From positions 2-64,001 of the forward strand of contig SOJN01000148.1 of the NCBI GenBank assembly GCA_004376575.1: 64,000 nucleotides of DNA, given 5' to 3'. The position numbers and the translations under genes are program-made. Source of the DNA: a candidate division TA06 bacterium (GTDB lineage Bacteria > Hydrothermota > DG-26 > E44-bin18). This document shows, in pieces, positions 171 through 58,507 of this stretch; within the stretch, counting starts at the first letter, position 1, and the number at the start of each line of letters is the position of its first letter. Below the pieces are notes generated by a model that was not told where the DNA came from, ran no database searches, and saw nothing but the letters and a program-made list of their open reading frames with translations.

Positions 171-199
171 TTGACATGGCATTTTGTTTTTGTTAGTAT
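171..199 (+). promoter_or_regulatory. Sigma70-like promoter: TTGACA (171-176), 17-bp spacer, TAGTAT (194-199), upstream of operon 1
   Basis: Perfect -35 hexamer and near-consensus -10 with 17-nt spacing, ~45 nt upstream of the ATG at 245. A purine-rich RBS (aagggaagg) precedes the start. Confidence 0.35.
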
Positions 200-244: not shown

Positions 245-1489
245 ATGGCCGAAGAGACTAAAGTGAAAAGAAAAAGGATCGCAGCGACAGGGATGATGAA
301 AAAGATCATGGCAGACTATTTCTACGAGATGGACAAGGCTGTCAAAGCTGGAGCCCCGAAGGTCGCGTGGTGCACGAGCGTGGGGCCTGCCGAGCTCCTC
401 CGGGCAATGGGTTTCCTCGTCCACTTTCCAGAAAACCACGGGGCAATGCTTGGAGCAACAAGGACAGCCAACGATTACATACCACTGGCAAACGCAATCG
501 GCTATTCTCCTGATATATGTTCTTATCTTACCAGTGATGTTGGGGCTTATCTGAAGGGAGAAACACCTCTTTCTAAAGCATATCCTGGCATAGAAAACGT
601 GCCCAAGCCGGATGTTCTTGTCTTCAACACCAACCAATGCAGGGATGTACAGGACTGGTTTGGCTGGTATTCAAGGGAGTTCAAAGTCCCCATCATGGGA
701 ATCAATACTCATAGAGGAGTAAGGGAAGTCACCAAGTCCCACATCGACAGTGTGGCGAGGCAGATAGCTTCTCTGGTCCCGGGGCTCGAAGAGATATCAG
801 GAAACAAATTCGACCTGGAAAGACTTCAAGAAACTGTGGATCTCTCTCTTGAATGCAGCCAACTCTGGCGCCAGGTTCTGGAAACGGCTGCCAACATCCC
901 ATCTCCATTCACATTCTTCGACGGAACCATCCACATGGGTCCAGCAGTAGTACTGAGGGGAACAAAGACAGCTGTGGACTACTACAAGGCCCTTCTTGCA
1001 GAGCTGAATGACAGAGTCGATAAGGGAGTCGCGGCTGTGGAAGGTGAAAGGTACAGGCTTTACTGGGAGGGGATGCCGATCTGGGGTAGGCTGCGAGACC
1101 TCTCGGAGTTTTTCGCTCATCTGAAGGCCTCTGTGCTTGCATCCACCTACTGCAACTCCTGGATATTCGATGCATTTGACCCAAAGGAACCCTTCGGAAG
1201 CATGGCCAAAGCATACACACTCCTCTTCATTGTCCGCTCTGACGAAGAGAAAGAGAAGTACATAGAGGATATGGTCACGAAATTCAAGCTCGACGGCATA
1301 GTATTTCACGACTCCAAGACGTGTCCCAATAACACAAATAGTAGATATGGAATGCCGGAGAGGCTGCGGGAGAGTCTGGATGTCAACACTGTTACCATCT
1401 TTGGAGATCTGAACGACCTCCGCTGCTACTCGGAGGAACAATCAAAGACAAACATTGAAGCCTTCATCGAACAACTGGAGAGGAAATAA
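245..1489 (+). CDS. Stand-alone 2-hydroxyacyl-CoA dehydratase D-component / benzoyl-CoA reductase BcrB/C-family Fe-S protein (HgdB-like; double-cubane-cluster-protein-like)
   Basis: 414 aa. C-terminal ...GIVFHDSKTCPNNT... region typical of the HgdB/BcrB/BadD family. Multiple conserved Cys. Translationally coupled (TAATG) to the activase gene. No partner HgdA-like subunit is present upstream. Confidence 0.75.
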   Translation: MAEETKVKRKRIAATGMMKKIMADYFYEMDKAVKAGAPKVAWCTSVGPAELLRAMGFLVHFPENHGAMLGATRTANDYIPLANAIGYSPDICSYLTSDVGAYLKGETPLSKAYPGIENVPKPDVLVFNTNQCRDVQDWFGWYSREFKVPIMGINTHRGVREVTKSHIDSVARQIASLVPGLEEISGNKFDLERLQETVDLSLECSQLWRQVLETAANIPSPFTFFDGTIHMGPAVVLRGTKTAVDYYKALLAELNDRVDKGVAAVEGERYRLYWEGMPIWGRLRDLSEFFAHLKASVLASTYCNSWIFDAFDPKEPFGSMAKAYTLLFIVRSDEEKEKYIEDMVTKFKLDGIVFHDSKTCPNNTNSRYGMPERLRESLDVNTVTIFGDLNDLRCYSEEQSKTNIEAFIEQLERK

Positions 1490-2259
1490 TGGTCCTGGGA
1501 ATCGATGTAGGAGCCTCCGCAACAAAAGGAATTCTTCTCAATCAGGACCGGCAGGTTGTGTCCTTCTATGTAAGAGATTCAGGCGTAGACTTCAAACAAG
1601 CAGCGGAAGATACCCGCATGAACTGTATGAGTACTGCGGGAATAGCTGAGGATGATATCAAATACACTATTGCCAGTGGGTATGGGAGAAGGAGTGTCTC
1701 TTTTGCAGACGATATCAAAACCGAAATATCCTGCCACGCCAGAGGAGGTTACTTCCACCATCCCAAAGCCTGTACAATCGTTGATATTGGGGGCCAGGAC
1801 AGCAAAGTCATCAGAGTAGACGATGCAGGTAAGCCCATTTCCTTCAAGATGAACAGAAAGTGCGCGGCGGGCACAGGCGCATTCCTGGTGGAGACTGCTG
1901 CCAGGCTCTCAATTCACCTTGAGCAAATGGAAGGCCTCGCACGGGGAGCCCAGAAAGAGATAGAACTGGGATCATTCTGCACTGTCTTCACCAAGACAGA
2001 GATACTGGCCAGGATCTCTGAAGGAGCTTGCGCAGAAGACATAGCAAGAGGAGTATTTGGTTCGGTCATCAAGAGAATCATAGAGATGGATCCACTGACA
2101 GGAGATGTGGTGATGACCGGTGGAGTCATCGCACACAATCCTTTTCTTGGAGAGATGTTTGAGAAAAAACTGAACAGGAAACTGTTCGTCCCCGAAAAGC
2201 CGCAGTTTGCTGGAGCCCTTGGCGCAGCACTTTTCGCTCTTGAACAATCCGGAGGCTGA
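1489..2259 (+). CDS. CoA-substrate-specific enzyme activase (HgdC/BcrAD/BadFG-family ASKHA ATPase)
   Basis: 256 aa. N-terminal GIDVGASATKG (actin-fold phosphate-1), ISCHARG and KCAAGTGAF motifs typical of HgdC-type [4Fe-4S]-bridging activases. Confidence 0.85.
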   Translation: MVLGIDVGASATKGILLNQDRQVVSFYVRDSGVDFKQAAEDTRMNCMSTAGIAEDDIKYTIASGYGRRSVSFADDIKTEISCHARGGYFHHPKACTIVDIGGQDSKVIRVDDAGKPISFKMNRKCAAGTGAFLVETAARLSIHLEQMEGLARGAQKEIELGSFCTVFTKTEILARISEGACAEDIARGVFGSVIKRIIEMDPLTGDVVMTGGVIAHNPFLGEMFEKKLNRKLFVPEKPQFAGALGAALFALEQSGG

Positions 2260-2261
2260 GT

Positions 2262-4352
2262 ATGCTCGACTACCTCTTCAAACCAAAATCGGTTGCTGTC
2301 ATCGGTGCATCGAACAGAAAACTGACCATCGGCTACAGGATACTCCAGAATCTTTCAGAATCGGGATACAAGGGGCAGGTGTATCCTGTCCATCCCAAGG
2401 AAGATAAGATTAGAAACCTCAAGGCTTACAGGTCCGTACTTGATGTTCCGGCTGAACTCGATGTCGCGCACATAGTCGTGAAAAGTTCTCTTGTGCAGAC
2501 AGTGCTGGAAGAGTGCTGCAAGAAGAAGGTTAGATCAGTAATCATCAATACAGCAGGCTTCAGCGAGGTCGGTGAAGAGGGGAAAGAACTGGAGAGTAAG
2601 ATAGTGGACATAGCCCGAAAAGGGAATGTTCGCGTCTTCGGCCCGAACTGCCAGGGAATCATGAATTCTGACCCGGATGTGAGGGCTTACTGCAACTTCA
2701 CCTTCACAAGGATGAATCCGGGGACAATATCCATTGTCGCCCAGAGCGGTGGGGTTGGCGAGGTCATAAACCAAAGGCTCTACTCACTTGGTGAAGGGTT
2801 CAGGATGTATGCATCGACAGGAAATGCAGCAGACATAAGCATTCCCGAGATAATGAACTACTGGGCGAATGATGATGGAACAAAAGTGATAATAGTCCAC
2901 GTAGAAAGCCTTGCGGATCCAAAGAAATTTATGGATATAGCAGCTGAGGTCGCAAGGAAGAAGCCTGTACTGGGAATGAAAACCGGAAGGACGGTCGAGG
3001 GTGCCAAAGCCGTCGTCTCGCACACTGGAAGGCTTATGGGGGAAGGAATGCCCATAGAGCTGATGTTTGAGAGATGCGGAATTGTCAGTTTCCGTGACCA
3101 GGATGAGCTGTGCCAGGCGGCAATTGCGTTTGCAAAGCAGCCTCTTCCGGAGGGAAACAGAGTTGCCATTGTTACCAATTCCGGTGGACCTGGAATTATA
3201 GCCACTGATGGATGCATTGAGGCCGGGCTGGAGCTTCCTACGTTGTCGCACGATACGCAGACTACACTTAAGGAGAATCTTTTCCCGGAGGCCACTGTAA
3301 GCAACCCTGTAGATGTTCTCGCTACGGCAACACCGGAGCACTATGGGCTCACCCTCAGAGAACTGATAAGAGATTCCAAGGTGGACTCAATACTGGTCAA
3401 TTTTATCACACCTTTCTTTGTAGATTGCGAGGGTGTCGCACGCGAAATAGTGAAGGCCTCTGAGAAGAGAGAGAAACCCGTCATTGCCGTGATAATGACA
3501 GACAGAGAACAACAAGCAGAGACCTTACGAATCATCAGAAAAGGAAACATACCCACATACGACTTCGCTGAGATGGCCACAAAAACACTGCGGGCCATGG
3601 TGAGAATGTCTGATTATCATCAGAGAGCCAAGGAACCCTTTGAGCCATTTGGAGACGTAGACAAAAATGCTGCCCGTTCGCTGGTAACAACTGCCCTGAA
3701 AGAAAAGACAAACATACTTGGTGCGGAGCAGTGTGTGCAAATTCTCGATTTCTACCGGATACCACAGGCACCAGCACTGGTGGGAGCAAATTTGCACCAG
3801 TGTCTTTCGGCTGCAAGAGAGATTGGTTTCCCCGTTGCCCTGAAGGTCGATTCTGTGGACGTGATTCACAAAACCGAGGTCGGCGGCCTTTCTTTGAACA
3901 TTGCCAATGAACAATGTCTGAAAAAAGAGTTTAATAATCTCCGCGGCAAATTCAGGAACTATAGTCCGCAATATCTTGTCCAGAAGTACCTGACAGGCGG
4001 AATAGAGGTGATTGCAGGGGCCAAAACAGTAGACGGCGTCGGCCACGTCGTAATGTTCGGCCTGGGTGGTGTCCTTGTGGAGGTCATGAAGGACGTAGTA
4101 TTCCAGTTCGCACCACTCAATAGAACTGGAGCCCAAAGGATGATCAAATCTACAAAGGGTTATCCTGTTCTTAGAGGTTTCAGAGGCCGGGAAGGTGCAA
4201 ACACAGAAAGGCTCATAGAGATATTGATGAGAGTGTCACAGCTCGTGACTGAAGTTCCAGAGATAGCCGAGCTCGATTTGAATCCCATAATCGCGTACAA
4301 AGACCCTTCCAGGACAGTCGCGGTAGACGTGCGGATCAAGATCTCTGGCTGA
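2262..4352 (+). CDS. ADP-forming acyl-CoA synthetase (NDP-forming), fused alpha/beta (CoA-binding + ATP-grasp)
   Basis: 696 aa. N-terminal CoA-binding SVAVIGAS... domain (succinyl-CoA synthetase alpha-like). C-terminal ATP-grasp domain. Architecture of acetyl-CoA synthetase (ADP-forming). Confidence 0.8.
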   Translation: MLDYLFKPKSVAVIGASNRKLTIGYRILQNLSESGYKGQVYPVHPKEDKIRNLKAYRSVLDVPAELDVAHIVVKSSLVQTVLEECCKKKVRSVIINTAGFSEVGEEGKELESKIVDIARKGNVRVFGPNCQGIMNSDPDVRAYCNFTFTRMNPGTISIVAQSGGVGEVINQRLYSLGEGFRMYASTGNAADISIPEIMNYWANDDGTKVIIVHVESLADPKKFMDIAAEVARKKPVLGMKTGRTVEGAKAVVSHTGRLMGEGMPIELMFERCGIVSFRDQDELCQAAIAFAKQPLPEGNRVAIVTNSGGPGIIATDGCIEAGLELPTLSHDTQTTLKENLFPEATVSNPVDVLATATPEHYGLTLRELIRDSKVDSILVNFITPFFVDCEGVAREIVKASEKREKPVIAVIMTDREQQAETLRIIRKGNIPTYDFAEMATKTLRAMVRMSDYHQRAKEPFEPFGDVDKNAARSLVTTALKEKTNILGAEQCVQILDFYRIPQAPALVGANLHQCLSAAREIGFPVALKVDSVDVIHKTEVGGLSLNIANEQCLKKEFNNLRGKFRNYSPQYLVQKYLTGGIEVIAGAKTVDGVGHVVMFGLGGVLVEVMKDVVFQFAPLNRTGAQRMIKSTKGYPVLRGFRGREGANTERLIEILMRVSQLVTEVPEIAELDLNPIIAYKDPSRTVAVDVRIKISG

Positions 4353-4378: not shown

Positions 4379-5950
4379 TTGGCAATGGGTGTACCCTGGC
4401 TCAATCTAGGCGAGATCCTCGTAGTGAATTCCAAAAAGTACAGAAACAAGCTGGCCCTCAAGGAAAGAGACAGAGCGTTCACGTTCGGGGAGCTGAACGT
4501 GAGGACCAACCAGCTCGCCAATGCATTGGTTTCAATGGGATTGAAAAAGGGCGAAAAGGTGTCATGCCTTCTGGAGAACTCCATCGAAATTGTCGAACTC
4601 TATCTTGCCGCTGCCAAAACGGGAATGGTGCTGAATCCTATCAACTTCAGACTGTCCCCTAACGATGTGGAATACATAGTGGGCGACTCTGACGCAAAGG
4701 CGATAGTAGCACACGAGGAGTTCACCCCCTGTATCGATGAGATCAGGGGGAATCTTCCAAACGTAAGAAACTTCGTCTCGGTAGGAGAAGAAACCCCTCC
4801 GGGATACGTAAACTACGAATCTCTGCTGGCTGAGTCCTCAGATGATGAGCCCAGGGCAAAGGTCAATCCTGAGGACAACTGGGTACTCCTCTACACCTCC
4901 GGGACTACAGGGAAGCCCAAGGGTGTTGTCCGTTCACACGAGTCCTATGTTGCGTTCTATTTGATAAATGCAATAGATTTCGGTTTCAGTGAACATGACG
5001 TCTGTCTTAACATAATGCCCCTATCCCACGTCAATTCTACCTTTTTCTCTTTCACCTTTACATACATCGGCGGAAGCCTCTATATCCATCCAGCCAGCCA
5101 TTTTGACCCTGTTGAAATCCTGGAAATCATCCAGAGAGAAAAGATAACCTTCATATCTCTGATACCTACTCATTACAATCTCATTCTTAATGTGCCAGAA
5201 GAAGAGAGAAGGGAATACGATGTCAGTTCTATCAAGAAACTTCTTTGTTCCTCGGCTCCTGCCCGGAAAGAAATGAAGAAAGCAGTGATGGAGATGTTCA
5301 AGGGGGTGGAGCTGTACGAAGGATATGGATCCACTGAAGCAGGCATAGTCACAGTTCTCAAGCCTTATGAACAGATGACAAAACTCGGTTCGATTGGCAG
5401 AGAGTCGTGCGGTACGAGTATGATCAAGATTCTTGATGAGCAAGGCAACCCCGTTCCAGTGGGACAGGTCGGAGAACTTTACTCCAGGGGTCCAATGCTA
5501 TTCGACAAATACCACAAACTTCCAGAAAAGACTGAAGAATCTTTCAGAGAAGGCTGGTTCACAGCAGGTGACATGGCAAAAGAAGATGAGGAAGGATACT
5601 TCTATATCGTCGATAGAAAAGACAACCTGGTAATCACGGGCGGGGAGCATGTCTATCCATCCGAGGTTGAGGAAGTGGTTGCGCGCCATCCGGCCGTTTT
5701 TGACGTGGCTGTAATCGGAGTTCCACACGAAAAATGGGGAGAAGCTGTCAAGGCAGTCGTAATCCTCAAGCATGGAAAGATGGCGACTGAACAGGAGATA
5801 ATAAAGTTCTGTGTTGGAAAGATGGCCTCCTTTAAGAAACCGAAATCTGTCACATTTATTGAGCCAGAGGAAATGCCCAGAACCGGTACAGGAAAGATAC
5901 TCCATCGGGAGTTGCGCAGGCGTTTCACAAAGAACAAGAATCAAGCGTGA
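4379..5950 (+). CDS. AMP-dependent acyl-CoA synthetase/ligase (candidate aromatic/alicyclic acid-CoA ligase)
   Basis: 523 aa. AMP-binding signature LLYTSGTTGKPKGV. C-terminal GEAVKAVV...KILHREL. Assigned to the ANL superfamily. Confidence 0.85.
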   Translation: MAMGVPWLNLGEILVVNSKKYRNKLALKERDRAFTFGELNVRTNQLANALVSMGLKKGEKVSCLLENSIEIVELYLAAAKTGMVLNPINFRLSPNDVEYIVGDSDAKAIVAHEEFTPCIDEIRGNLPNVRNFVSVGEETPPGYVNYESLLAESSDDEPRAKVNPEDNWVLLYTSGTTGKPKGVVRSHESYVAFYLINAIDFGFSEHDVCLNIMPLSHVNSTFFSFTFTYIGGSLYIHPASHFDPVEILEIIQREKITFISLIPTHYNLILNVPEEERREYDVSSIKKLLCSSAPARKEMKKAVMEMFKGVELYEGYGSTEAGIVTVLKPYEQMTKLGSIGRESCGTSMIKILDEQGNPVPVGQVGELYSRGPMLFDKYHKLPEKTEESFREGWFTAGDMAKEDEEGYFYIVDRKDNLVITGGEHVYPSEVEEVVARHPAVFDVAVIGVPHEKWGEAVKAVVILKHGKMATEQEIIKFCVGKMASFKKPKSVTFIEPEEMPRTGTGKILHRELRRRFTKNKNQA

Positions 5951-7554
5951 AGCATCACAGATCTGCCCCTTCTGCCCACCGTTCTGTCCCTTCCGACCGG
6001 CCGTGGTTTCGACACTGGCCCAGCGGTGCACCCAAACACATCGATTATCCGCAAAAGCCCCTCCCATTTCTTTTGGAGGACACGGCAAGAAGAAGCCCTG
6101 ACAGCATCGCCTTCAGTTCCGGCACAGATTCAATAGCCTTCTCAAAACTTTCGCAGAAATCGGACGCATTCGCCTCCGGGCTTCATTCAATCAACATACG
6201 CAAGGGCGACCGTGTACTTCTTCTTCTACCAAATATTATTGAGTTCGTTATCAGCTTCTATGGGACGCTTAAATCAGGTGCAGCCGTCGTGTCGCTTCAT
6301 CACCTTGTAAGGGAGGCTGAACTTTCAAAAGCCCTTGAAGAGAGTGAACCAAAGGCAGCAGTCATCCTGAGCAGCCTCTCCCCCGCTGAACGTGAGGTTC
6401 TGAATAAGTCCAGGGTGAGAGTCATAGAAGTTGGTGAACTGGCTGCAAGCAAATCGATCAGTTTTGGTCAATTCGTCTCGAAACGGAGAGCGTACCCACA
6501 CGTATCTGTTAGCGCTGATGACCCTGCCGTAATTCAATACACGGGCGCTACAACCGGCGCACCAAAACCAGCAGTCATGTCACATTTCAACCTTCTCGCC
6601 AATGCAGTGCAAAATGCAACCTGGTTTGGGTGGGATGAGAATGAAAAGGTTCTGGGAATTCTGCCGCTTTGCCATACATGGGGATGCTCGTGCTGTATGA
6701 ATTCCCCAATATACACAGGAGCAAAAACCATTTTTGTGGGAAGATTTGATCCTGAGGTTGTTCTCCAGACCATCGAAGCTGAACATGCAACCGTTCTCTA
6801 CGGATCAGCGACTATGTTCTCAGTGTTGTTGAATAGCCCCGGGATTGAAAGGTTCAACCTTTCCAGTCTCAAATGGGTGAAGGCAGGAGCCATGCCAATT
6901 CCTGTTGAACTCAAAAGGAAGTGGGATGAGAAGACAGGAATACCGCTGGTGCTAGGGTATGGCCTGACTGAGGCTTCCCCTGAGACCCACGACAGTCCTC
7001 CAAACAGAATCAGAGAGGGGACGATCGGAATTCCAATCATAGATACGGACGCGAAGATAGTCGATCTGGAGACGGAAAATGAATTAGAGCCCGGGAAACC
7101 AGGTGAACTGCTGATTCGAGGGCCTCAGGTTACAGAGCTTGGATACCTGAACGATGAGGAAGAGACAGAACGTGCACTCCGAGGAGGCTGGCTTCATACC
7201 GGAGACATAGGAATAATGGACGCGGAAGGTTATTTTACCCTTGTGGACAGGAAGAAGGACATAATCAAATACAAAGGCTACACCATATATCCTGTAGAAC
7301 TGGAAGATCTGCTCTATGGACACCCCGCAGTAAGAGAGTGCGCCGTGGTCGCAAAGAAACACTCTGAGTTTGGGGAGGTCCCCAAGGCATTCATCGTGTG
7401 CAAAGAGGATTCAGCGTTAACGGAAGAAGACGTAATTGAATTCTGTGAGAAGAGAGTTGCTCCATACAAAAAGATAAGAGAAGTCGAGTTTATTGAGTGT
7501 TTGCCCAAGACGCCGGTGGGCAAAGTTTTGAGAAGAAAGCTGAGAGACAAATGA
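5947..7554 (+). CDS. AMP-dependent acyl-CoA synthetase/ligase (FadD-like)
   Basis: 535 aa. N-terminus RPWFRHWPSGAPKHIDYP resembles the FadD N-terminus. AMP-binding motif IQYTGATTGAPKPAVMSH. GTG start overlaps the previous stop (GTGA). Confidence 0.8.
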   Translation: MKHHRSAPSAHRSVPSDRPWFRHWPSGAPKHIDYPQKPLPFLLEDTARRSPDSIAFSSGTDSIAFSKLSQKSDAFASGLHSINIRKGDRVLLLLPNIIEFVISFYGTLKSGAAVVSLHHLVREAELSKALEESEPKAAVILSSLSPAEREVLNKSRVRVIEVGELAASKSISFGQFVSKRRAYPHVSVSADDPAVIQYTGATTGAPKPAVMSHFNLLANAVQNATWFGWDENEKVLGILPLCHTWGCSCCMNSPIYTGAKTIFVGRFDPEVVLQTIEAEHATVLYGSATMFSVLLNSPGIERFNLSSLKWVKAGAMPIPVELKRKWDEKTGIPLVLGYGLTEASPETHDSPPNRIREGTIGIPIIDTDAKIVDLETENELEPGKPGELLIRGPQVTELGYLNDEEETERALRGGWLHTGDIGIMDAEGYFTLVDRKKDIIKYKGYTIYPVELEDLLYGHPAVRECAVVAKKHSEFGEVPKAFIVCKEDSALTEEDVIEFCEKRVAPYKKIREVEFIECLPKTPVGKVLRRKLRDK

Positions 7555-7653
7555 TGAATCACAAACTACGAATTACTAATTGCAAAAGTGTAAGAGGATC
7601 GATTTACGAATCCCGTCGCGTTTTTCGGCGTGGGGGTTTCCTTCCTTTCCCTC

Positions 7654-7682
7654 TTGACAACATTTTTGTGTCAAGTTATGAT
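7654..7682 (+). promoter_or_regulatory. Sigma70-like promoter (TTGACA-17-TATGAT) embedded in the palindrome CTTGACA-N9-TGTCAAG, upstream of bamA operon
   Basis: Near-consensus -35 and -10 hexamers with 17-nt spacing. The -35 lies inside a 7-bp inverted repeat (cttgaca / tgtcaag), suggesting an operator. Confidence 0.35.
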
Positions 7683-7772: not shown

Positions 7773-8912
7773 ATGTCACTTGATTGGCTGCCCAGGGACG
7801 ATGAAGTGAAGAACCACGCGCTTTGGGGCAAAGAACATTTCGGCACAGAGCCCCCCTGCGTGATTTATGAAAAGAGACCTGTCATAGATTCAGATGGAAA
7901 TGAAGTCAAAGGGCTCTATTCTGCATGGGTCATTCTGAACAATCCTAAACAGTACAACTCATACACTACTGAAATGGTCAAGGGAGTGATAGCAGGTTTC
8001 CAAAACGCCTCACTCGATAGGAGCGTTGTCTCTGTGGTCTTCACCGCCGTGGGTGATAGAGCATTCTGCACTGGCGGAAACACCAAAGAGTATGCTGAAT
8101 ACTACAGCAAACGGCCCAATGAATACGGGGAGTACATGGACCTGTTCAACCAGATGGTGGATGCTATCCTCATGTGCAAGAAGCCTACCATATGCCGGGT
8201 GAATGGGATGAGAATTGCTGGTGGCCAGGAGATAGGAATGGCCTGTGACATAGCCATTGCGGCTGACACTGCAACCTTCGGGCAGGCGGGACCGAGACAT
8301 GGGTCTGCCCCTGACGGGGGCTCAAGCGACTTCCTTCCGTGGTACTTGAGCATAGAAGACGCACTGTGGAACTGCGTATCATGCGAGATATGGAGTGCGT
8401 ACAAGATGAAAAGGCTTGGTCTCATTACCAGAGTGGTCCCTGTCATAAAGGACGGAGAAAAGTGGATAAGAAACCCGATGGTAATCACAGGCAAATACGT
8501 GGAGGACGGGGAAATCGTTTATGGAGAGCTGGTTAAAGGAGAAGAACTGAAGAAAGCAAAGGAATTCTTGAAGGGAGGCAAGAAAGATTTTGGACTCCTG
8601 GACGCGGCAGTTAATGAAGTCATCTGGAAATTTGTCAACCTGATGCCTGGATGTCTGATAAAATCAATAGATGGTGTCCGAATGAAGAAGAAATTCTTCT
8701 GGGACGTGGCCAAACTGGCAAACAGACACTGGCTTGCAGCAAACATGTCCACGGAAGCGTTCCTTGGTTTCCACGCGTTCAATACTAAGAAGATAACCGG
8801 CAAAGACGTGATTGACTTTGTGAAGTATCGTCAGTTGATTGCCGAGGGACACGTGTTCGATGATTCACTTGCTGAGGAGGTATTCGGGAAGCCGAAACCA
8901 GAAGCTGAGTGA
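7773..8912 (+). CDS. bamA: 6-oxocyclohex-1-ene-1-carbonyl-CoA hydrolase (ring-cleaving crotonase-family hydrolase, BamA/Oah)
   Basis: 379 aa, crotonase fold. Contains QYNSYTT and GQEIGMA, the peptide motifs encoded by the bamA functional-marker primer sites. Length matches BamA/Oah (~380 aa). Confidence 0.85.
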   Translation: MSLDWLPRDDEVKNHALWGKEHFGTEPPCVIYEKRPVIDSDGNEVKGLYSAWVILNNPKQYNSYTTEMVKGVIAGFQNASLDRSVVSVVFTAVGDRAFCTGGNTKEYAEYYSKRPNEYGEYMDLFNQMVDAILMCKKPTICRVNGMRIAGGQEIGMACDIAIAADTATFGQAGPRHGSAPDGGSSDFLPWYLSIEDALWNCVSCEIWSAYKMKRLGLITRVVPVIKDGEKWIRNPMVITGKYVEDGEIVYGELVKGEELKKAKEFLKGGKKDFGLLDAAVNEVIWKFVNLMPGCLIKSIDGVRMKKKFFWDVAKLANRHWLAANMSTEAFLGFHAFNTKKITGKDVIDFVKYRQLIAEGHVFDDSLAEEVFGKPKPEAE

Positions 8913-8974
8913 GAACGACTCTCACAAAACCTTCATCCAAACAACCCCAGATTGGGAAAGGAGTAATCGAGGAA

Positions 8975-10219
8975 ATGAAGAAAAAGGAAATCTTCTGGAT
9001 TCCCAAGAAAATCGACGGCGGCGGTCCCGCCCTCATGAAGAAGATGAAGAAGAAGATTGTCTTTCTTTCCGCCACGCGCACACCCTTTGGAGAGGTGAAT
9101 GGCTCCCTGAAGACGTTCACTCCTATTGAGCTGGGGGCGCTGGCAGCGAGAAGCGCCATTGAAAAAGCGGGACTGAAGGGACGTGAACATCTGATAGATG
9201 AATCAATCTTCGGGAACGCCCAACACACAAGCATCGACTCGCACTACGGTGGAAGACACGTTGCCCTCCGCGCGGGTCTACCTTATGATAAGCCCGGACT
9301 CACGGTCAATCGGATATGTTTCTCAGGCGGAGAGGCTGTCATACAGGGTGCAAAACAGATTATTCTTGGCGAAGCAGAAATCGTTCTTGCTGGGGGGTAT
9401 GAAAGCAGCAGTCAGGCACCCAGTCTGCAATATGGCGCCTCACTGGGCTTCCCGTACATGGCCGGGGCAAGAGTATACCACTTGTTCAAAGACGGTCTTC
9501 AGGATACATACATTAACATGGATATGATGGCGACTGCTGAGAGATTAGCAAAGCTGTATGGCGTGACGCGAAAAGATGCTGATGAATTCGCCTACTCTTC
9601 CCAGATGAAAGCGAAGGACGCAATAGAGAAAGGGAGACTGGCCAAAGAGATAACGCCCGTGGTCATAAAGACCAGGAGGGGCGAGCATGTCGTCTCAGAA
9701 GATGGACACACAAGGCCCGAAGTCACGCTCAAAACACTCGCCGGGCTCAGGAATGTGAAGCCCGGGGGAATTCAGACTGCCGGCAACTCAAGCGGAATCG
9801 TTGATGGCGGCGCTGCCATAATAGTTGCCTCGAGTGAAAAGGCAAAGAAACTGGGGCTCCAACCGATAGGCGAGATTATCTCCTGGGGGACTGCGGCTGT
9901 TGATCCATATTACATGGGTATCGGTCCGGTGCCATCAAGCACAATTGCTCTGAAACGTGCAGGCATGACCTGGAAGAATATTGACCATATAGAGATCAAT
10001 GAGGCATTTGCCGGCCAGTATCTGGCCGTAGAGCGTGAACTGAAATTGGACAGAGGCAAGGTGAACCTGAATGGCGGTGCGATTGCACTTGGCCATCCGC
10101 TTGGAGCAACCGGCACCAGACTCATTACTGCACTTATAACACTTGGGGGCGTCGGCCTGGCATCTGCATGCATAGGTGGCGGCCAGGGCGGAGCAATGAT
10201 TCTGAAAAGTTACCTCTAG
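8975..10219 (+). CDS. Acetyl-CoA C-acyltransferase (thiolase)
   Basis: Thiolase motifs NRICFSGGEAV, NEAFAGQYLAV, GGAIALGHPLGATG, GGGQGGAMIL. The Lys-rich N-terminus makes the start ambiguous (ATG 8975 with AAGGAG upstream; the homolog-consistent start is ATG 9044, MKKKIVFLSATRTPFG). Confidence 0.8.
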   Translation: MKKKEIFWIPKKIDGGGPALMKKMKKKIVFLSATRTPFGEVNGSLKTFTPIELGALAARSAIEKAGLKGREHLIDESIFGNAQHTSIDSHYGGRHVALRAGLPYDKPGLTVNRICFSGGEAVIQGAKQIILGEAEIVLAGGYESSSQAPSLQYGASLGFPYMAGARVYHLFKDGLQDTYINMDMMATAERLAKLYGVTRKDADEFAYSSQMKAKDAIEKGRLAKEITPVVIKTRRGEHVVSEDGHTRPEVTLKTLAGLRNVKPGGIQTAGNSSGIVDGGAAIIVASSEKAKKLGLQPIGEIISWGTAAVDPYYMGIGPVPSSTIALKRAGMTWKNIDHIEINEAFAGQYLAVERELKLDRGKVNLNGGAIALGHPLGATGTRLITALITLGGVGLASACIGGGQGGAMILKSYL

Positions 10220-10225
10220 CGCCCG

Positions 10226-12586
10226 TTGAAAGGAGCACTAAAGATGGACAAAGGACTTGCATACAAAGCTGGGAAGAAATCAAAAGGTTGGAGTGATGTG
10301 GAGATCCTGGTGATCGGGGCAGGCACAATGGGTTCAAGCATAGCCCAGGCATATGCTCAGAACGGGTTCAACGTGGGCCTTCTGGACATATCTGGTGAAA
10401 TCTTGGACAAGGGATTCGATACGATCCAAGCTGAGCTTGACAATGCGAAAGGACGTATATTCTCCCCAGAACAGGTGGAAGATATCAAGAGCAGGATACT
10501 GGGAACGACCAGTTACCCGAAGGCCTGCAAGGGGAAAAATCTTAAACTGGTCATTGAAACAGCCACTGAAAACATAGATATCAAGAAGAAGATCTTCTCC
10601 CAATTGGACAGGTTGTGCCGGCCTCACGTCGTTTTTGCAACCAATTCCTCTTCTCTTGACGTAAACCTGCTGGCACGATCGACAAAACGGCCAGACAAGG
10701 TTGTGTGGATGCATTATTTCTACCTACCGCACAAGAACAGAGCTGGAGAGTATGCCGGTACGGACACTGCAAGCAAGAAAACCATCGCACTGGCAGCCAA
10801 ATACATGAAGCTCGGTGGAAAGGTGGCAACACCAATCCTGAGCAGCAGAAAGGGTGGTGCAGCAGACATTATATTCGTGTCTTTACTGCATGAAGCCGCA
10901 CTGATGAGAGACGAAGGGTATGATATTGCAACCATTGAGGCTGCGGGAAAGAGAGCCTTCAGCATGCCAATGGGATTTCTGCAACTCATGGACGTGACCG
11001 GCGTGGCTGTTGGAATCTACGCCATGGAGTCTTTCTCAGATGATTCCAACAGAAATGATCCTGTCTACAAGGTTTATGGAGACTTTTTCTGGCCACCTGA
11101 ATCATGCAGGGAGCTTATGCGGAGGTACAACAAGGCCGCGGACAAGTCCAGGGTGAGATGGGTCTCCAAAGATGACCTGGAAGCAAAACCCAAAGACGAA
11201 AAGACCGTGCAAATGCTGACTGAAAGATTCTTGGCCATCGGTTTCGTCACTGCCACTGAAGTGGTTGACGCAGGGGTCATAGAAATGGAAGATGTGGACA
11301 GGCTCGCGGAGAATGCCTTCCTCTGGAGCGAGGGGCCTTTCGCCATAATGAATAGAATCGGAATCAAGAATGCGAGCAGTATGGTTCAGGCAAGAGCTTC
11401 GCATGCGAAAAAGCAGCATAGAAGTTTCCCCATGCCAAAACTTCTGAAGACTCAGGCACAGAAGGGGAAACCATGGTCGATCACCATGAGTCCGGTGCTG
11501 TACAATGAGGAGATGGGCGGCAAGGTCGCCAGAATAACAATCTCTAATCCGAAGGCTGCTAATGCCCTCGATAACCGGGTTTTCGAGGAGCTGAGGAGCG
11601 CTTTCAAAAAAGCGAACAGTGACCAAAAAGTGAAGGTGATAATCTTCGATTCCGCCCCAATCAAGACTTTTATAGCGGGTGCCAACGTACCCGACTTCGT
11701 GAAGAACATGAAGGCCGGACGGTTTGAAAAGATACGTGATGATACTGCAATGTGGCAAGATGTTCTTTTCGACTCTATGACTGGGAAGGGCAAACCGAAG
11801 ATCGCGATCGTGGATGGGCTCACCCTTGGCGGAGGGGTCGAAACTGCCCTTTCTTTTGCATTAGACCCCGACTCAGTTGTCATTGCAACTGACAGGACGT
11901 CTTATACCCTACCCGAGACAAAGCTTGGAATCTTCCCCGGGCTACGCGGGACTCTGGTGCTCCCTCAAATTATTTACAACAAGACCAAGGATTCTGAGCT
12001 GGCAGTGGCCATGGCAAGGTACTATATCCTCGCAGGTGGCACGTCCACATCTTCCCCCAGGCTTCTCAAATACCTGGGATTTGCGGATTTGATAGTCCCC
12101 GCACATGAGAGAGACGACGCTGCAGCAGAAGTTGCGGATGCAATAATCAAGAACAAAGGGAAACCCCTCAGTACGAAACAATTGAAAAGTCTCAAGATTA
12201 ACGAGCTACCATCTGAGTTGAGCCTCGAAGAAAGGGAGGAGCTGCGGACGATGAAAGAGCTCTTCCTGACGCAGGATTTGATACCGGCTCTCTACGCTTA
12301 TGGGCGAGGTGACAGAGAGCTCTTCTTTGTCGGAGAAGCTCGCTCGTACGCACGGAGGATTGCGCGGAGGGTGGCAAACAACTCTCCTAATGCGGTGTGG
12401 ATTTCTAATTGGCTGATAAGCAAGGGGTTTGAGGACTTCCTGAAAGGAGTGGACACCAAGACGATCGCAGAGAGGGAGCTGAATGACTATCTGGTGCCGA
12501 CATTCATGCACCCCGATGCTATGGTGGGATTGACTTCACTCCTGGAGCGTAAGTTCCCTGAGTTTCCACGGAGATATCCATTTTAA
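10226..12586 (+). CDS. Bifunctional 3-hydroxyacyl-CoA dehydrogenase (N-terminal) / enoyl-CoA hydratase (C-terminal), reversed FadB domain order
   Basis: 786 aa. N-terminal Rossmann VIGAGTMGSSIAQ (3HCDH_N). C-terminal crotonase region ITISNPKAANALD...GLTLGGG. Confidence 0.85.
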   Translation: MKGALKMDKGLAYKAGKKSKGWSDVEILVIGAGTMGSSIAQAYAQNGFNVGLLDISGEILDKGFDTIQAELDNAKGRIFSPEQVEDIKSRILGTTSYPKACKGKNLKLVIETATENIDIKKKIFSQLDRLCRPHVVFATNSSSLDVNLLARSTKRPDKVVWMHYFYLPHKNRAGEYAGTDTASKKTIALAAKYMKLGGKVATPILSSRKGGAADIIFVSLLHEAALMRDEGYDIATIEAAGKRAFSMPMGFLQLMDVTGVAVGIYAMESFSDDSNRNDPVYKVYGDFFWPPESCRELMRRYNKAADKSRVRWVSKDDLEAKPKDEKTVQMLTERFLAIGFVTATEVVDAGVIEMEDVDRLAENAFLWSEGPFAIMNRIGIKNASSMVQARASHAKKQHRSFPMPKLLKTQAQKGKPWSITMSPVLYNEEMGGKVARITISNPKAANALDNRVFEELRSAFKKANSDQKVKVIIFDSAPIKTFIAGANVPDFVKNMKAGRFEKIRDDTAMWQDVLFDSMTGKGKPKIAIVDGLTLGGGVETALSFALDPDSVVIATDRTSYTLPETKLGIFPGLRGTLVLPQIIYNKTKDSELAVAMARYYILAGGTSTSSPRLLKYLGFADLIVPAHERDDAAAEVADAIIKNKGKPLSTKQLKSLKINELPSELSLEEREELRTMKELFLTQDLIPALYAYGRGDRELFFVGEARSYARRIARRVANNSPNAVWISNWLISKGFEDFLKGVDTKTIAERELNDYLVPTFMHPDAMVGLTSLLERKFPEFPRRYPF

Positions 12587-12597
12587 GGGGGAAAATC

Positions 12598-13344
12598 ATG
12601 AAGGACCTGAAGGGGAAATCAGCTATTGTCACAGGTGGTAGCTTGGGTATAGGGACTGCGATAGCGCTGGATCTTGCGGCCAATGGTGTTAATATCGCTA
12701 TCAACTACAGAAAGCACGCAGACGAAGCCAACGCCGTAGTCGAAAAGGCAAAAGGGATGGGTGTGAAGGCGTTGGCCGTGAAGGCCGATGTATCCAATTT
12801 TCAGGATGCTCAGAACATGGTTGACACGGTCGTCAAGGAGTTCGGGTCGCTGGACATACTGATCAACAATGCAGGAGTCAACTGGGATGGTGTCATCTGG
12901 AAGATGAGCGAAGAACAATGGGATACAGTGATAGGTATCGACCTGAAAGGTTGCTTCAACTACATAAGAGCAGTCTCCCCCATATTCAGGGAGCAGAAGC
13001 ACGGGAAGATCGTCAACATAACCTCCATAAATGCGCTGAGGGGCAAGTTCGGGCAGAGCAATTATTCGGCTGCCAAGGCAGGTGTCATTGGCCTGACAAA
13101 GACAGCTGCAAAGGAACTCGGCAAATACAGCATCAATGTCAACTCCGTAGCTCCAGGACTGATAGAGACAGAGATGATAAAGAAGATGCCAGATGATGCG
13201 AAACAGGTGTCCATCAATGAAACGACTTTCAAAAGGCTGGGCACGCCGGAGGATGTAGCTCACGTGGTCGCATTTCTGTGCAGCGACCTTTCCAGGCACG
13301 TGACTGGCGAAGTCATAAAAGTAGACGGCGGGCAATATATCTGA
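12598..13344 (+). CDS. Short-chain dehydrogenase/reductase (FabG/BadH-like 3-oxo/hydroxyacyl reductase)
   Basis: 248 aa. TGGSLGIGTAIA cofactor motif and YSAAK catalytic motif. Classical SDR. Confidence 0.85.
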   Translation: MKDLKGKSAIVTGGSLGIGTAIALDLAANGVNIAINYRKHADEANAVVEKAKGMGVKALAVKADVSNFQDAQNMVDTVVKEFGSLDILINNAGVNWDGVIWKMSEEQWDTVIGIDLKGCFNYIRAVSPIFREQKHGKIVNITSINALRGKFGQSNYSAAKAGVIGLTKTAAKELGKYSINVNSVAPGLIETEMIKKMPDDAKQVSINETTFKRLGTPEDVAHVVAFLCSDLSRHVTGEVIKVDGGQYI

Positions 13345-13351
13345 AAAACAG

Positions 13352-14557
13352 ATGTGCAGGAGGATAGCAATGGAACTGAGGGACGTAGTAATAGTGAGCG
13401 CTTGTAGAGCTCCGATGGGAAGGTTCGGAGGGACTTTGAAGAATATGGCTGCCTACGACGTAGGAGCTGTGGCGGTGAAGGAAGCACTCAAGAGAGCAAA
13501 GCTGAAGGGCGAACAGGTGGACGACGTCTTGCTCGGCTCTTGCAGACAAGCAGGAAATGGACCCAACCCTGCAAGAACTGCCGCGGTCAGAGGTGGAGTC
13601 CCCGCACAGGTACCTGTGATGACACTCAACATGGCGTGTCCCTCGGGCATGAGAGCGCTCGCGCAGGCCAGCCAGGCAATAAGGCTGGGAGACGCGAGCA
13701 CAATCCTTGTCGGTGGATTTGACTCTATGAGCACCATCCCCTATCTTCTGAAAGACGTGAGGTGGGCCGGGTTCAAGATGGGTGACAAAACACTTCTCGA
13801 TGGTTGGGCAGACTCTATAGATCCCCTCTGCGGGTTCGGAATGGGGATGACCGCGGAAAACGTTGCTGAGAAATACAAGATCACACGCGAAGAGCAGGAC
13901 AAGTTTGCCTATGAAAGCCATATGAAGGCGGCGAAAGCGCAGGACGAGGGATGGTTTAATGAAGAGATCGTGTCAATCGAGGTTCCTCAGAGAAAGGGTG
14001 ATCCCATCATCTTCGATAAGGACGAAACGATCAGGCGCGATACTTCGCTGGAGAAACTGGCCAAGCTTCGTGCTGTGTTCAAGAAGGACGGGTGCGTCAC
14101 TGCCGGGAATGCGTGCGCAATGTCAGACGGTGCGGCAGCTATGATTGTTATGTCGCGGCCGAAAGCAAAGGAACTTGGTCTCAAGCCGCTCTTTTCGATC
14201 GTTTCCTATGCGCAGACTGCTGTGGAACCAGAAACCATGGGAGAAGGGCCGGGGTTTGTCATCCCTATGGCACTCGAGCGGGCAGGGATGGAGCTAGGAG
14301 ACATGGATCTCATAGAGGTGAACGAAGCCTTTGCCGTTCAGATTCTGGCCAATGAAAAGAAACTCAACTGGGACCGCACCAAGCTGAACGTTCATGGTGG
14401 AGCGATAGCCCTTGGTCACCCGACTGGGATAAGTGGTGCACGGATCATTGTTACTCTATATCATGCGCTGAAGCAGAGAAACAAGGAGCACGGCATCGCG
14501 GCAATCTGCGGAGGCGGCGGCGTCACCATGGCCACTGTGATCCGCAGAGAAAACTGA
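13352..14557 (+). CDS. Acetyl-CoA acetyltransferase (thiolase II)
   Basis: 401 aa. VVIVSACRAPMGRFGG N-terminus, NEAFAVQ, GGAIALGHPTGISG, CGGGGVTMA. Confidence 0.9.
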   Translation: MCRRIAMELRDVVIVSACRAPMGRFGGTLKNMAAYDVGAVAVKEALKRAKLKGEQVDDVLLGSCRQAGNGPNPARTAAVRGGVPAQVPVMTLNMACPSGMRALAQASQAIRLGDASTILVGGFDSMSTIPYLLKDVRWAGFKMGDKTLLDGWADSIDPLCGFGMGMTAENVAEKYKITREEQDKFAYESHMKAAKAQDEGWFNEEIVSIEVPQRKGDPIIFDKDETIRRDTSLEKLAKLRAVFKKDGCVTAGNACAMSDGAAAMIVMSRPKAKELGLKPLFSIVSYAQTAVEPETMGEGPGFVIPMALERAGMELGDMDLIEVNEAFAVQILANEKKLNWDRTKLNVHGGAIALGHPTGISGARIIVTLYHALKQRNKEHGIAAICGGGGVTMATVIRREN

Positions 14558-21694: not shown

Positions 21695-22825
21695 ATGAAG
21701 ATGAAGGAGATGTTCAAGGAGTTTTACGAAGCCAGGCATGAGTACGCCAAGGAATGGAAGAAGAAGAACCGCGGCAAAGTAATGGGTTATTTCTGTACAT
21801 ACGTGCCAGAGGAGATGCTTTACGCCGCGGGAGTTCTTCCGGTCCGAATTCTGGGAAGCCATGAACCCCAGGACCTGACCGAACCTCACATCTTTGGGAT
21901 GTTCTGCCCGTTTTGCAGAGACTGTCTGGCTCAGGGTTTGAAGGGAAGGTTCGACTACCTGGATGGTATAATGATAGCTCAGTCCTGCCTGCACGTGAGG
22001 CAGGCCTACACTTCGTGGGACCTTCACATACCTACAGAGTACTCATACTATCTCTCCACACCTCATCACGTTCAGTCTCCTCGGGCTATCCCCTACCTGG
22101 CAGGTGAACTGGAGGATTTCAAAAAGTCACTCGAAGGGTGGCTGGGCAAGAAGATAACTGATGCGAACCTTGACAAAGGTATCCAAATCATGAACACAAA
22201 CAGATCGCTCCTGCGAGAACTATACGAGCTCAGAAAACAGGAAGCGCCGCCTCTCACAGGGCTCGATGCGATGTATGCTGTTGTTTCAGGCCAGATGATA
22301 GACAAGGTTGAACACAACCGCATACTTGAGGACACATTGAAGAGTCTAAAGAACAAACAGCCTGAAAGGCCAACAGGAAGCAGACTGATGCTAATAGGCA
22401 GCGAAGATGACGATACAGGCTTTATAGAGATGGTGGAATCCCTGGGAGCCACTTTTGTAATAGATGACCACTGCACTGGTTCGCGCTATATCTGGGAAGA
22501 CGTAAAACCTAACGGAGACAGATTGACTGCAATAGCAGAAAGATACGTCAAACGAGTACCATGCCCCACAAAAGATTGGCCGCTGAGAAACCGCCTTCCT
22601 CACATTCTCAAACTTGCAAAGGAGTACAAGGTGGAAGGTGCAGTCATCGCTCAACAGAAGTTCTGTGACCCGCACGAACTGGACATACCCGCAATCAAAA
22701 AGCTGCTCGAAGAGAATAGCATACCCACCTTATTCCTTGAGTTGGATGTGACTGTTCCCATTGGACAGTTCAAAGTCCGGGTTGAAGCATTCCTGGAGAT
22801 GCTGAGCGAAGAAGATCTATTCTGA
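21695..22825 (+). CDS. bzdN: Benzoyl-CoA reductase (class I, Bzd-type) gamma subunit, BcrC/BadD/BzdN-like (HgdA/B family)
   Basis: 376 aa, HgdAB/BcrBC family (…[21 protein letters not shown]…). First gene of the 4-gene set gamma-beta-delta-alpha followed by ferredoxin, as in the bzdNOPQM order. Confidence 0.7.
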
Positions 22826-22835
22826 GGAGGATAAG

Positions 22836-24143
22836 ATGGCGAAGTATGAAACTGAACGGCTGAAGTGCTGGAACAAGGCGAAAGAGTTGAGAAAGAATTT
22901 CTACGAAGATTACGCGAAAGCCCATGAAAAGGGTGGCATAAGATGGGCTGGAGGTGCGTGGTCCATAGGTTCGATTCCGGCCGGACTGGGAAGAGACGTC
23001 TACCCGATCACTTCTGAGCCGTACGCTGCCAGCATTGCATTTGACAGACCCTTCTCAGAAGAATGCCTCGCGGCGATCGAAAAAGAAGGGTATGCCAGGG
23101 ACCTGTGTTCATACATGCGCAACTACTGGGGAAGTGTTTTGTTGAACAAGTACGCCTTTGGCGGAGAGTTTCCCACTCCTGACTTCATCTGGCAGGATCA
23201 TATATGCTGCAGCCACGCAAAATGGTACCAGGTGGTGAAGGACATAGAAGAAAAGGACATACCCTACTTCTGCCTTGATGTGGCTGTTGGTCCTTACAGC
23301 GAGTTGAATGAGAACAAATTGAACTATGTCGTGGGCCAACTGCACGACGCCATCGAATGGATGGAGAAGCTGACAGGCCGGAACTACCAAGACGAACTGC
23401 TCATAGAGGCGGTCAATGATGAGTGCAGATCAACATCTGTCTGGGCTGAGGTGTGCGCGCTGAACAAGGCAATACCAGCACCTCTCGATGAGAAATCCAT
23501 GTATTCGCTTTATGTCCTGGGCACTCTCAAAAAGCACTCCAAGGATATTGCAGACTTCTACGAGGAGTTGAGAGATGAGGTGAAGGACAGAGTTGACCGG
23601 GGTATTGCCGCTGTTGGAAATGAACGGTGCCGGGTGATGACTGACACTCAGCCTCCCTGGGGATTCTTGAAGATATTTAGATATATGGAAAAGTTCGGTT
23701 GCATCTCTGTCGGTTCTCTCTACACCTTTGGCCTCATCGGAATGTGGGAAGACAAACCTGACGGGACGTGGGGGCCCAAGACGACCCCGCAGCAAAAGGG
23801 GATTGAAATCAAGGACAGGGATGAGGCCTTGAGAATCATTGCTGAGTGGAATCTGTCTAAGCCAGAGTGGCAGCACTTCTATCATCCAAAGCACAAGACC
23901 GACATGATGGTGAGAATCGCCAAAGAGTGGAAGCTGGACGGGGTGATGCTTCACTACAACAGGGGATGCGAGGGATTGAGCATTGGGATAGCAGAGAACA
24001 GACTTGGCATACAGGAAGCTGGATTCCCTGTCATGACCTTCGAAGGAAACATGGGAGATGAAAGAGAGTTCGATGAGGCGAAAACCGTGGGTAGAATCGA
24101 CACATTCATGGAAAGTCTCGGATTCAGCAAGGATGAAGAGTAG
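22836..24143 (+). CDS. bzdO: Benzoyl-CoA reductase beta subunit, BcrB/BadE/BzdO-like
   Basis: 435 aa, HgdAB/BcrBC family (…[19 protein letters not shown]…[13 protein letters not shown]…). Size matches BcrB/BzdO. Confidence 0.7.
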
Positions 24144-24149
24144 GGGGAT

Positions 24150-58276: not shown

Positions 58277-58507
58277 AGTCTACGCAACCCAACCCATCGA
58301 GTCAATCCCATAACATAGATGAAATGGCGTGAACTATTCTGTTGACCAATTTGCTTTTGTGCAGTAGACTCCTTCTGTAAGAGAACGGTCTTCAAGGACG
58401 GCGCGGATGTTCGGGTGTGTTACACAAAAAGAGAAAAAGCTCAGGTCACGGAAGTGTCCCGCGGGCAACCAATGTCTGCCCGCGACCTCACGATCTCTGG
58501 AGGAGCA

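Follow-up and report, generated by a model that had tools for sequence, protein, structure and literature searches.

To our knowledge, all the characterised ATP-activated ketyl-radical dehydratases and class I benzoyl-CoA reductases (BCRs) need two different iron-sulfur (Fe-S) subunits. Among the dehydratases, FldABC and its activator FldI from Clostridium sporogenes convert phenyllactyl-CoA to cinnamoyl-CoA by an ATP-activated ketyl-radical enzyme, whereas HadBC and its activator HadI (Clostridioides difficile; PDB 3O3M, 4EHT) belong to the leucine pathway. The reductases are represented by the catalytic subunits BzdO and MbdO (8S02, 9G87), the former working with a BzdN subunit that holds an [8Fe-9S] cluster, and a further branch by the double-cubane cluster protein (DCCP) with its reductase DCCP-R from Carboxydothermus hydrogenoformans (6ENO, 7YYL), in which one catalytic gene is paired with one homodimer-type ASKHA ATPase. 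Here we describe a gene module at the start of a 64,000-nucleotide stretch of DNA (the window) from a candidate division TA06 bacterium (contig SOJN01000148.1, positions 2 to 64,001), whose first gene encodes a 414-aa catalytic-type HGD-D Fe-S protein, hereafter HGDx (245-1489, forward strand as all the genes given below), followed by a 256-aa HgdC/HadI-type ATP-dependent activase (1489-2259) and a 696-aa fused alpha-beta ADP-forming acyl-CoA synthetase (ACD; 2262-4352). The HGDx family does without one of the two Fe-S subunits, and the reading that we favour, at about an even chance, is that HGDx and its activase constitute a single-subunit, probably homodimeric ketyl-radical 2-hydroxyacyl-CoA dehydratase with an activator of the HadI/HgdC type.

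The three open reading frames and their coupling to a single HgdC-type ATPase exist as a previous sequence-only reading of this DNA had described them. The stop codon of HGDx (TAA, 1487-1489) shares one base with the ATG of the activase (1489-1491) in a TAATG overlap (...AAATAATGGTC...), and the gap between the activase and ACD genes is of just 2 nt. HGDx matches Pfam HGD-D with 208.8 bits, the activase matches Pfam BcrAD_BadFG (172 bits) and TIGR00241 (224 bits, cutoff 125), and the synthetase carries the Pfam CoA_binding, Succ_CoA_lig and ATP-grasp_5 domains, its top solved relative being an ADP-forming 4-hydroxybutyrate-CoA ligase (8wzu, 469 bits).

As judged by profile scores, solved relatives and predicted fold, HGDx is an alpha or catalytic-type subunit similar to HadB, HgdA, BcrB, BzdO and MbdO. 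The NCBIfam models give it 215 bits for HadB (NF052455), far under the equivalog cutoff of 750, 148 bits for BcrB (TIGR02260, cutoff 487) and 83 bits for BzdO (TIGR03191, cutoff 449), whereas the DCCP model (NF040772, cutoff 350) reaches 48.2 bits and aligns with residues 164-411 only, that is, with the C-terminal half. Among solved structures the matches follow the order HadB (3o3m_A, E 2e-50), MbdO (7e-32) and BzdO (5e-22), and a profile of the whole family finds HadB with an E value of 6e-60, as against 2e-7 for DCCP (6eno_A), again over residues 173-410 only. An AlphaFold model of HGDx (pLDDT 78, pTM 0.84, with residues 392-394 under a pLDDT of 50) retrieves HadB as the best Foldseek hit (TM 0.88/0.91, rmsd 2.5) at around 30% full-length identity, with TM values of 0.83-0.84 for BzdO/MbdO, 0.75-0.78 for DCCP and 0.69-0.74 for the beta subunits. 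In the clusters defined in PMC7317905, HGDx falls in the catalytic-subunit branch (cluster III) and DCCP in cluster IV. The previous labelling of the protein as an HgdB/BcrB-family subunit had thus exchanged HgdB and HgdA, and its catalytic type implies that the absent partner would be of the HgdB/HadC/BzdN type and not of the HgdA type.

Conserved residues of HGDx show a similar picture. The [4Fe-4S] ligands of HadB (C84, C117, C346) and BzdO (C95, C128, C380) have their aligned counterparts in C92, C132 and C360 of HGDx. These three cysteines are universal among 60 alpha-type relatives and are predicted to bind a [4Fe-4S] cluster with one open Fe site, as in the catalytic alpha subunits. The PEN(H/Q) Glu is also conserved between HGDx and HadB, and Glu63 of HGDx corresponds to the conserved Glu65 of BzdO, whose Trp46 is in turn Trp42 in HGDx. 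On the other hand, the catalytic His131 of BzdO aligns with Val135 of HGDx, which is invariant in the family and is also Val in HadB. The replacement of this BCR-specific histidine argues against a Birch-type reduction by HGDx. A one-subunit benzoyl-CoA reductase, an idea raised by the synteny with BCR and ring-hydrolase genes described below, is disfavoured on the grounds of this Val and of the co-occurrence of complete BCR gene sets. Moreover, class I BCRs such as BzdNOPQ have two HGD-D and two different ATPase genes, whereas the HGDx module has one of each and lacks a BzdN-type partner.

The orphan status of HGDx was examined in 82 orthologous bacterial and archaeal loci of 65-77% identity, taken from the best-scoring 80 of each scan and so not a random sample, in which all open reading frames within flanks of up to 10 kb were searched with alpha-type, beta-type (HadC, BzdN) and DCCP queries. 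Linked beta-type HGD-D genes were found in none of the 82 loci, which come from many phyla, within 10 kb on either side, unlinked genes being outside the scope of this search. No second HGD-D gene adjoins HGDx in any of them, and the sole locus with another HGD-D match (L058) carries it in a separate BCR-like set. Of these loci, 70 have a single activase and 54 have ACD beside HGDx, whereas an orthologue of the first AMP-forming ligase of the window accompanies the module in 31 of them and a thiolase does so in 23. The architecture of one catalytic gene plus one activase, as proposed before, is therefore real and strongly conserved; the absence of a partner subunit also holds, except that the subunit lacking is HgdB/HadC/BzdN-like and not, as had been stated, HgdA-like. 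HGDx is found in at least 590 species-level genomes of bacteria and archaea (65-77% identity in a scan that took one genome for each species), including TA06, Elusimicrobia, Planctomycetota, Aminicenantes, Zixibacteria, Desulfobacterota, Geobacter, Ignavibacteria and Anaerolineae together with metagenome-assembled genomes (MAGs) of Thermoplasmatota and Promethearchaeota (Asgard), where the MAG taxonomy may include some binning errors. Each of the 120 closest database clusters shares 68% or more identity with HGDx, and the family collapses to around one representative when clustered at 50%.

An ordinary heteromeric dehydratase or reductase split between loci, in which HGDx would be an alternative catalytic subunit borrowing its beta partner from elsewhere in the genome or from the BzdN gene of the window (21695-22825), has to be weighed here. 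This BzdN is encoded 20 kb downstream of the module, a homologue of HGDx in a sister clade shares its operon with BzdN/MbdO-like genes, and the search for beta genes was confined to the loci. Such borrowing seems quite improbable, because beta genes are lacking from all 82 core loci, including those of Desulfobacterota, Geobacter and archaea with no nearby Bzd genes. The enzyme has its own activase in most loci, as does the sister clade, where this activase, often fused to a reductase, comes on top of the two BCR ATPases, and unrelated housekeeping genes lie between the two clusters of the window.

The activase is likewise closer to the dehydratase systems. Its matches rank as HadI (187 bits; E 3e-54 to 4eht), MbdQ, HgdC, MbdP and, last, DCCP-R (107 bits). 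The two cluster ligands, C125 and C164, are invariant in the 68 orthologues compared (68/68), and the protein conforms to the type of ATP-dependent activator in which two Cys per dimer bridge a [4Fe-4S] cluster. A further cysteine of the activase, Cys82, in the motif EISCHARG, is also invariant in 68 of 68 orthologues.

The module had been put forward as a candidate of the DCCP type, for ATP-driven low-potential reduction, and some similarities support this idea. As with DCCP and DCCP-R (PMC7317905), one catalytic gene goes with one ATPase gene, and both proteins share the fold of two Rossmann domains. Moreover, C43 and C303 are invariant in the core family of HGDx and C394 is conserved in around 95% of its members. 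Profile-profile alignment with DCCP, BzdN and HadC equates C92, C132, C303 and C360 with C114, C144, C309 and C374 of DCCP, and leaves C43 within one residue of DCCP C76, so that a conserved Cys occurs at, or one residue away from, five of the six double-cubane ligand positions. C43 and C303 would lie at or near two of the three ligand positions of the DCCP distal cubane, and C303 is specific to the HGDx superclade, precisely the one that lacks a beta partner. However, the third distal ligand position (Cys341/343 in DCCP) is occupied by Phe328/Val330 in HGDx, and the 7-Cys motif is not present. C394, the only candidate for that missing sixth ligand, maps to a loop that matches D400-D405 of DCCP, which moves on reductase docking. 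It is replaced by Phe in 49 of 59 proteins of the sister clade, and further near relatives with C43 and C303 intact have His, Leu or Tyr there, so that the superclade as a whole can offer at most two Cys to a second cubane. The idea that six conserved Cys build a double cubane, promising in the core-family alignment, was weakened by these sister clades. Furthermore, in HadB and BzdO the acyl-binding pocket takes up the space of the distal cubane (PMC11971306).

A canonical double cubane is thus not supported. HGDx as a DCCP proper is ruled out by its HMM (hidden Markov model) score, its Cys motif and the rankings of fold and activase. There is also the broader case of a DCCP-like enzyme, a single subunit with a double-cubane or another second Fe-S site that, with the activase as its reductase, would use ATP stoichiometrically to reduce an acyl-CoA, an aryl-CoA or a small molecule at low potential. 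In spite of the gene architecture and the cysteines mentioned above, we consider it unlikely, given a fold nearest to HadB, an activase nearest to HadI and the 2-oxoacid reductases and ligases that recur as partner genes. A rather doubtful intermediate, slightly easier to accept, is a self-sufficient homodimeric ketyl-radical enzyme in which C43 and C303, with C394 in the core family, would build a second Fe-S site at the place of the distal cubane, either a double-cubane-like or a two-Cys-ligated cluster, that replaces the beta subunit; net ATP-driven reduction would also be possible. If true, this would make a third architecture beside the heteromeric 2-hydroxyacyl-CoA dehydratases and BCRs and DCCP, and the first physiological CoA-ester context for a site of the double-cubane type.

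Partner genes offer the most direct hints about the chemistry of the module. The ketopantoate reductase family (PanE/ApbA) produces (R)-2-hydroxy acids from 2-oxo acids, and a reductase of this type was found in 33 of the 82 genome loci, both bacterial and archaeal, and in 52 of 80 metagenome loci. It is fused at the N-terminal side of the HGD-D domain in a protein 53% identical to HGDx (P0122) and to the activase in two metagenome loci (L116 and L148), whereas another locus (L057) has a D-2-hydroxyacid dehydrogenase gene right after the module. The recurrence and fusion of these 2-oxoacid reductases point to a dehydratase chemistry on 2-hydroxyacyl-CoAs and not to an ATP-stoichiometric reduction. 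Two other N-terminal fusions of PanE/ApbA to HGD-D (P0131 and P0154) have lost all cluster Cys, with Ser, Gly or Thr at positions 92, 132, 303 and 360, which suggests that they are Fe-S-free paralogues. Genes for a bifunctional 3-hydroxyacyl-CoA dehydrogenase/enoyl-CoA hydratase and a thiolase adjoin the module in a Zixibacteria locus (L003), an Anaerolineae locus (L075), two loci of the P0124 clade (L091, L095) and L098. Taken together, the partner genes would encode all the steps from a 2-oxo or 2-hydroxy acid to acetyl-CoA and an acyl-CoA two carbons shorter.

The related HGDx loci share in this way the logic of the clostridial Had operon, with a reductase, an activator and a dehydratase. 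Apart from the lack of a HadC-like beta subunit, they differ from it in a reductase of the PanE/ApbA type instead of the LdhA type, in the invariant Cys43 and Cys303, which are Ser and Pro in HadB, and in the use of ADP- and AMP-forming ligases instead of a CoA-transferase. No CoA-transferase was seen among the module partners, and ligases in its place would be expected for a product that undergoes further oxidation instead of release as a free acid.

In the window, two AMP-forming acyl-CoA ligases, both with Pfam AMP-binding domains, follow the ACD gene. The closest solved relatives of the first (4379-5950; start at 4385 and 521 aa according to the gene caller) are FadD5/FadD13 and feruloyl-CoA synthetase, and one of the two top solved relatives of the second (5947-7554) is a 4-coumarate-CoA ligase (273 bits). 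Beyond them lies the gene for 6-oxocyclohex-1-ene-1-carbonyl-CoA hydrolase (Oah/BamA, 7773-8912; TIGR03200 578 bits, cutoff 464), so that the succession of ACD and two ligases beside a benzoyl-CoA ring-cleavage operon is also as described before. A beta-oxidation set (8909-14557) continues the cluster with a thiolase (8909/8974-10219), a 3-hydroxyacyl-CoA dehydrogenase/enoyl-CoA hydratase fusion (10226-12586), an SDR (12598-13344) and a second thiolase (13352-14557). Farther downstream, and set apart from the module by unrelated housekeeping genes, there is a complete class I BCR of the BzdNOPQ type (21695-25810), which the sequence-only reading had not mentioned and which accounts for two more HGD-D genes in the window: a BzdN of 376 aa (E 1e-148 to PDB 8s02_B), a BzdO-like protein of 435 aa and two BcrAD-type ATPases. 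Genes for class I BCRs in TA06 and Aminicenantes MAGs had been published previously. The BCR set is followed by an 831-aa multi-Fe-S/flavin NAD(P)H-type oxidoreductase (26110-28605) and then by an M24 peptidase gene.

This proximity to aromatic metabolism recurs in other genomes. Oah is found within 10 kb of HGDx in around 12 of the 82 loci, from at least six phyla, and the 831-aa oxidoreductase reappears 6-8 kb upstream of HGDx orthologues in five loci of other phyla (L017, L027, L051, L053, L075). In the Anaerolineae locus L075, a co-directional cluster comprises BzdQ, ferredoxin, the oxidoreductase, Oah, Had, hydratase/dehydrogenase, HGDx, ACD, a ligase, ApbA and the activase. The sister clade (clade B; metagenome loci L096-L167, such as L148:5992-9046 and L116:6004-8918) is around 50% identical to HGDx and keeps C43, C92, C132, C303 and C360. 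Its operons follow the order BzdN, MbdO, two ATPases, ligase, HGDx homologue, ApbA(-activase), in some cases a thiolase, Had, Oah, Dch and SDR, and their PanE/ApbA reductase is often fused to its own activase in a protein of 573-612 aa. The kinship with BzdO and MbdO extends in this way from the catalytic type and the 3-Cys [4Fe-4S] site to a benzoyl-CoA pathway neighbourhood, and MbdO also has a Cys at the position of C43. IorAB is located near the module in 10 loci, and a PaaK-like ligase also in 10; the Desulfobacterota loci carry both together with ACT-domain genes. Xdh-family molybdenum enzyme genes, with FAD, 2Fe-2S and molybdenum cofactor (MoCo) subunits that are sometimes fused, are within 10 kb in 10-11 loci (L011, L013, L014, L018, L023, L037, L040, L062, L065, L070), and they are compatible with an enzyme similar to 4-hydroxybenzoyl-CoA reductase (Hcr). 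Homologues of IorAB, PaaK and Xdh, a Had-type alcohol dehydrogenase and an SSF transporter were not found in this window. On the whole, the CoA-ester substrate tied to the benzoyl-CoA pathway that had been anticipated finds backing in this recurrent synteny.

An aromatic substrate for the HGDx module is accordingly possible, and we advance it tentatively, at clearly less than an even chance. The likeliest class would be an aryl-lactyl-CoA, with phenyllactyl-CoA converted to cinnamoyl-CoA and finally to benzoyl-CoA and acetyl-CoA. A 2026 study of a benzene degrader proposed the route from phenylpyruvate through phenyllactyl-CoA and cinnamoyl-CoA to benzoyl-CoA with a 'yet unassigned dehydratase', and it refers to the dehydration of phenyllactyl-CoA by a Fld-type enzyme and to a 'singular' FldB-like gene (PMC13416013). 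The reaction proposed for HGDx would be that of FldABC, whereas FldBC is heterodimeric and needs the CoA-transferase FldA. Furthermore, the Fld product is reduced to phenylpropionate, whereas the product of HGDx would be beta-oxidised to benzoyl-CoA.

The main uncertainty within the favoured model is that the same type of enzyme may act on a non-aromatic substrate in amino-acid fermentation, for example on 2-hydroxyisocaproyl-CoA from leucine or 2-hydroxyglutaryl-CoA from glutamate, in which case the clustering with benzoyl-CoA genes would reflect a shared beta-oxidation or glutaryl-/glutaconyl-CoA metabolism. The nearest characterised relative, HadB, does belong to the leucine pathway, many of the hosts have been proposed as protein fermenters, and both Oah and BCR genes are lacking from the 10-kb surroundings of many loci, among them most of those from Desulfobacterota and archaea; thiolase, hydratase/dehydrogenase and ACD would suit any 2-enoyl-CoA. 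We regard this possibility as rather unlikely, since the neighbourhoods in different phyla repeatedly contain genes for Oah, Had, BCR, Xdh-family enzymes, IorAB and PaaK, clade B and L075 have the homologue well inside BCR-Had-Oah operons, and neither glutaconyl-CoA decarboxylase nor Etf/acyl-CoA dehydrogenase genes were seen adjoining the module.

Under the dehydratase reading with an aryl-lactyl-CoA substrate, the pathway would start with the conversion of a 2-hydroxy acid to its CoA ester by the adjoining ACD and/or the AMP-forming ligases, which would stand in for the clostridial CoA-transferase. In most other lineages, the PanE/ApbA-type reductase would produce this 2-hydroxy acid from a 2-oxo acid. 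The activase dimer, with its [4Fe-4S] cluster bridged by C125 and C164, would dock on the two-fold axis of an HGDx homodimer, by analogy with the DCCP:DCCP-R complex, and would couple ATP hydrolysis to the transfer of a single low-potential electron to the [4Fe-4S] cluster that C92, C132 and C360 bind. The thioester carbonyl would then bind the open Fe site to form a ketyl, the 2-hydroxyl group would leave, and C3 would be deprotonated, with Glu63 as the conserved candidate base. The electron would finally return, so that ATP would be needed only catalytically. The resulting enoyl-CoA would enter beta-oxidation through the hydratase/dehydrogenase and the thiolase, and the benzoyl-CoA product would feed the BzdNOPQ and Oah enzymes of the same window.

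Several points weigh against this scheme. We infer the dehydratase activity of the family from sequence and gene context, and every characterised 2-hydroxyacyl-CoA dehydratase is a heteromer of alpha and beta subunits (HgdAB, HadBC, FldBC, LcdAB; PMC7317905), whereas the HGDx module has no beta subunit. A plain HadB-like mechanism does not explain the invariant C43 and C303 at or next to double-cubane positions. The similarities of the ligases are generic for the ANL superfamily, and the ACD could equally run in the ATP-yielding direction. It is synteny that suggests an aromatic substrate, and no PanE/ApbA or D-2-hydroxyacid dehydrogenase gene was found in this window.

The flanks of the module offer some additional observations. 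A candidate sigma70-like promoter (171-199, forward strand; TTGACA-17-TAGTAT with a TG extension), which is a consensus match only (10/12), precedes HGDx, and its TTGACA is kept at the same place in L006, the closest relative for which upstream sequence exists (79% identity), where a divergent methyltransferase lies upstream of the HGDx orthologue. A terminator-like hairpin (7616-7633) and a second promoter-like site (7654-7682, forward strand), also a consensus match only (11/12), are located between the second ligase and Oah, so the ring-cleavage genes from Oah onward may have their own transcript, apart from the HGDx module. The native contig begins 87 nt before position 1 of the window, that is, 331 nt upstream of HGDx, and two independent assemblies, a JGI metagenome (L001) and an NCBI MAG (L002), break at this same base. 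This shared break hints at a repeat or a strain-variable junction just 5′ of HGDx, and the short open frames of the contig end (L001:1-331) showed no likeness to the C-termini of beta subunits or to the upstream gene of L006. Elsewhere in the window, the region 30466-33776 encodes a phenylalanyl-tRNA synthetase with a long alpha subunit (509 aa) and a beta subunit of 596 aa with B3_4/B5 domains, which may be nearer to the archaeal/spirochaete type than to the usual bacterial one. In the region 58415-63334 there is a gene for a protein of 1639 aa that carries FG-GAP, HYDIN/VesB-like Ig and DUF1573 repeats and is probably a large surface protein; a DUF3795/zinc-ribbon protein comes after it.

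A last question is what the HGDx family would mean for this class of enzymes. In an incomplete literature search, we found no published characterisation of the family, no single-subunit or homodimeric 2-hydroxyacyl-CoA dehydratase, and nothing relevant on the structure of MbdO or on links between PanE and dehydratases. What would be new is a radical chemistry of the 2-hydroxyacyl-CoA dehydratase type in a one-subunit format, together with an unexplained extra pair of Cys. The gene pair (245-2259) is small and open to a direct test by heterologous expression. If the proposal is true, metagenomic surveys that label HGDx generically as a subunit of benzoyl-CoA reductase or 2-hydroxyglutaryl-CoA dehydratase would be corrected, and HGDx would be regarded as a minimal form of the ketyl-radical enzyme class. 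Moreover, it would be the missing alpha-dehydratase for the anaerobic conversion of phenylalanine/tyrosine or phenyl-lactate to benzoyl-CoA, the step left unassigned in the 2026 study of anaerobic benzene degradation.

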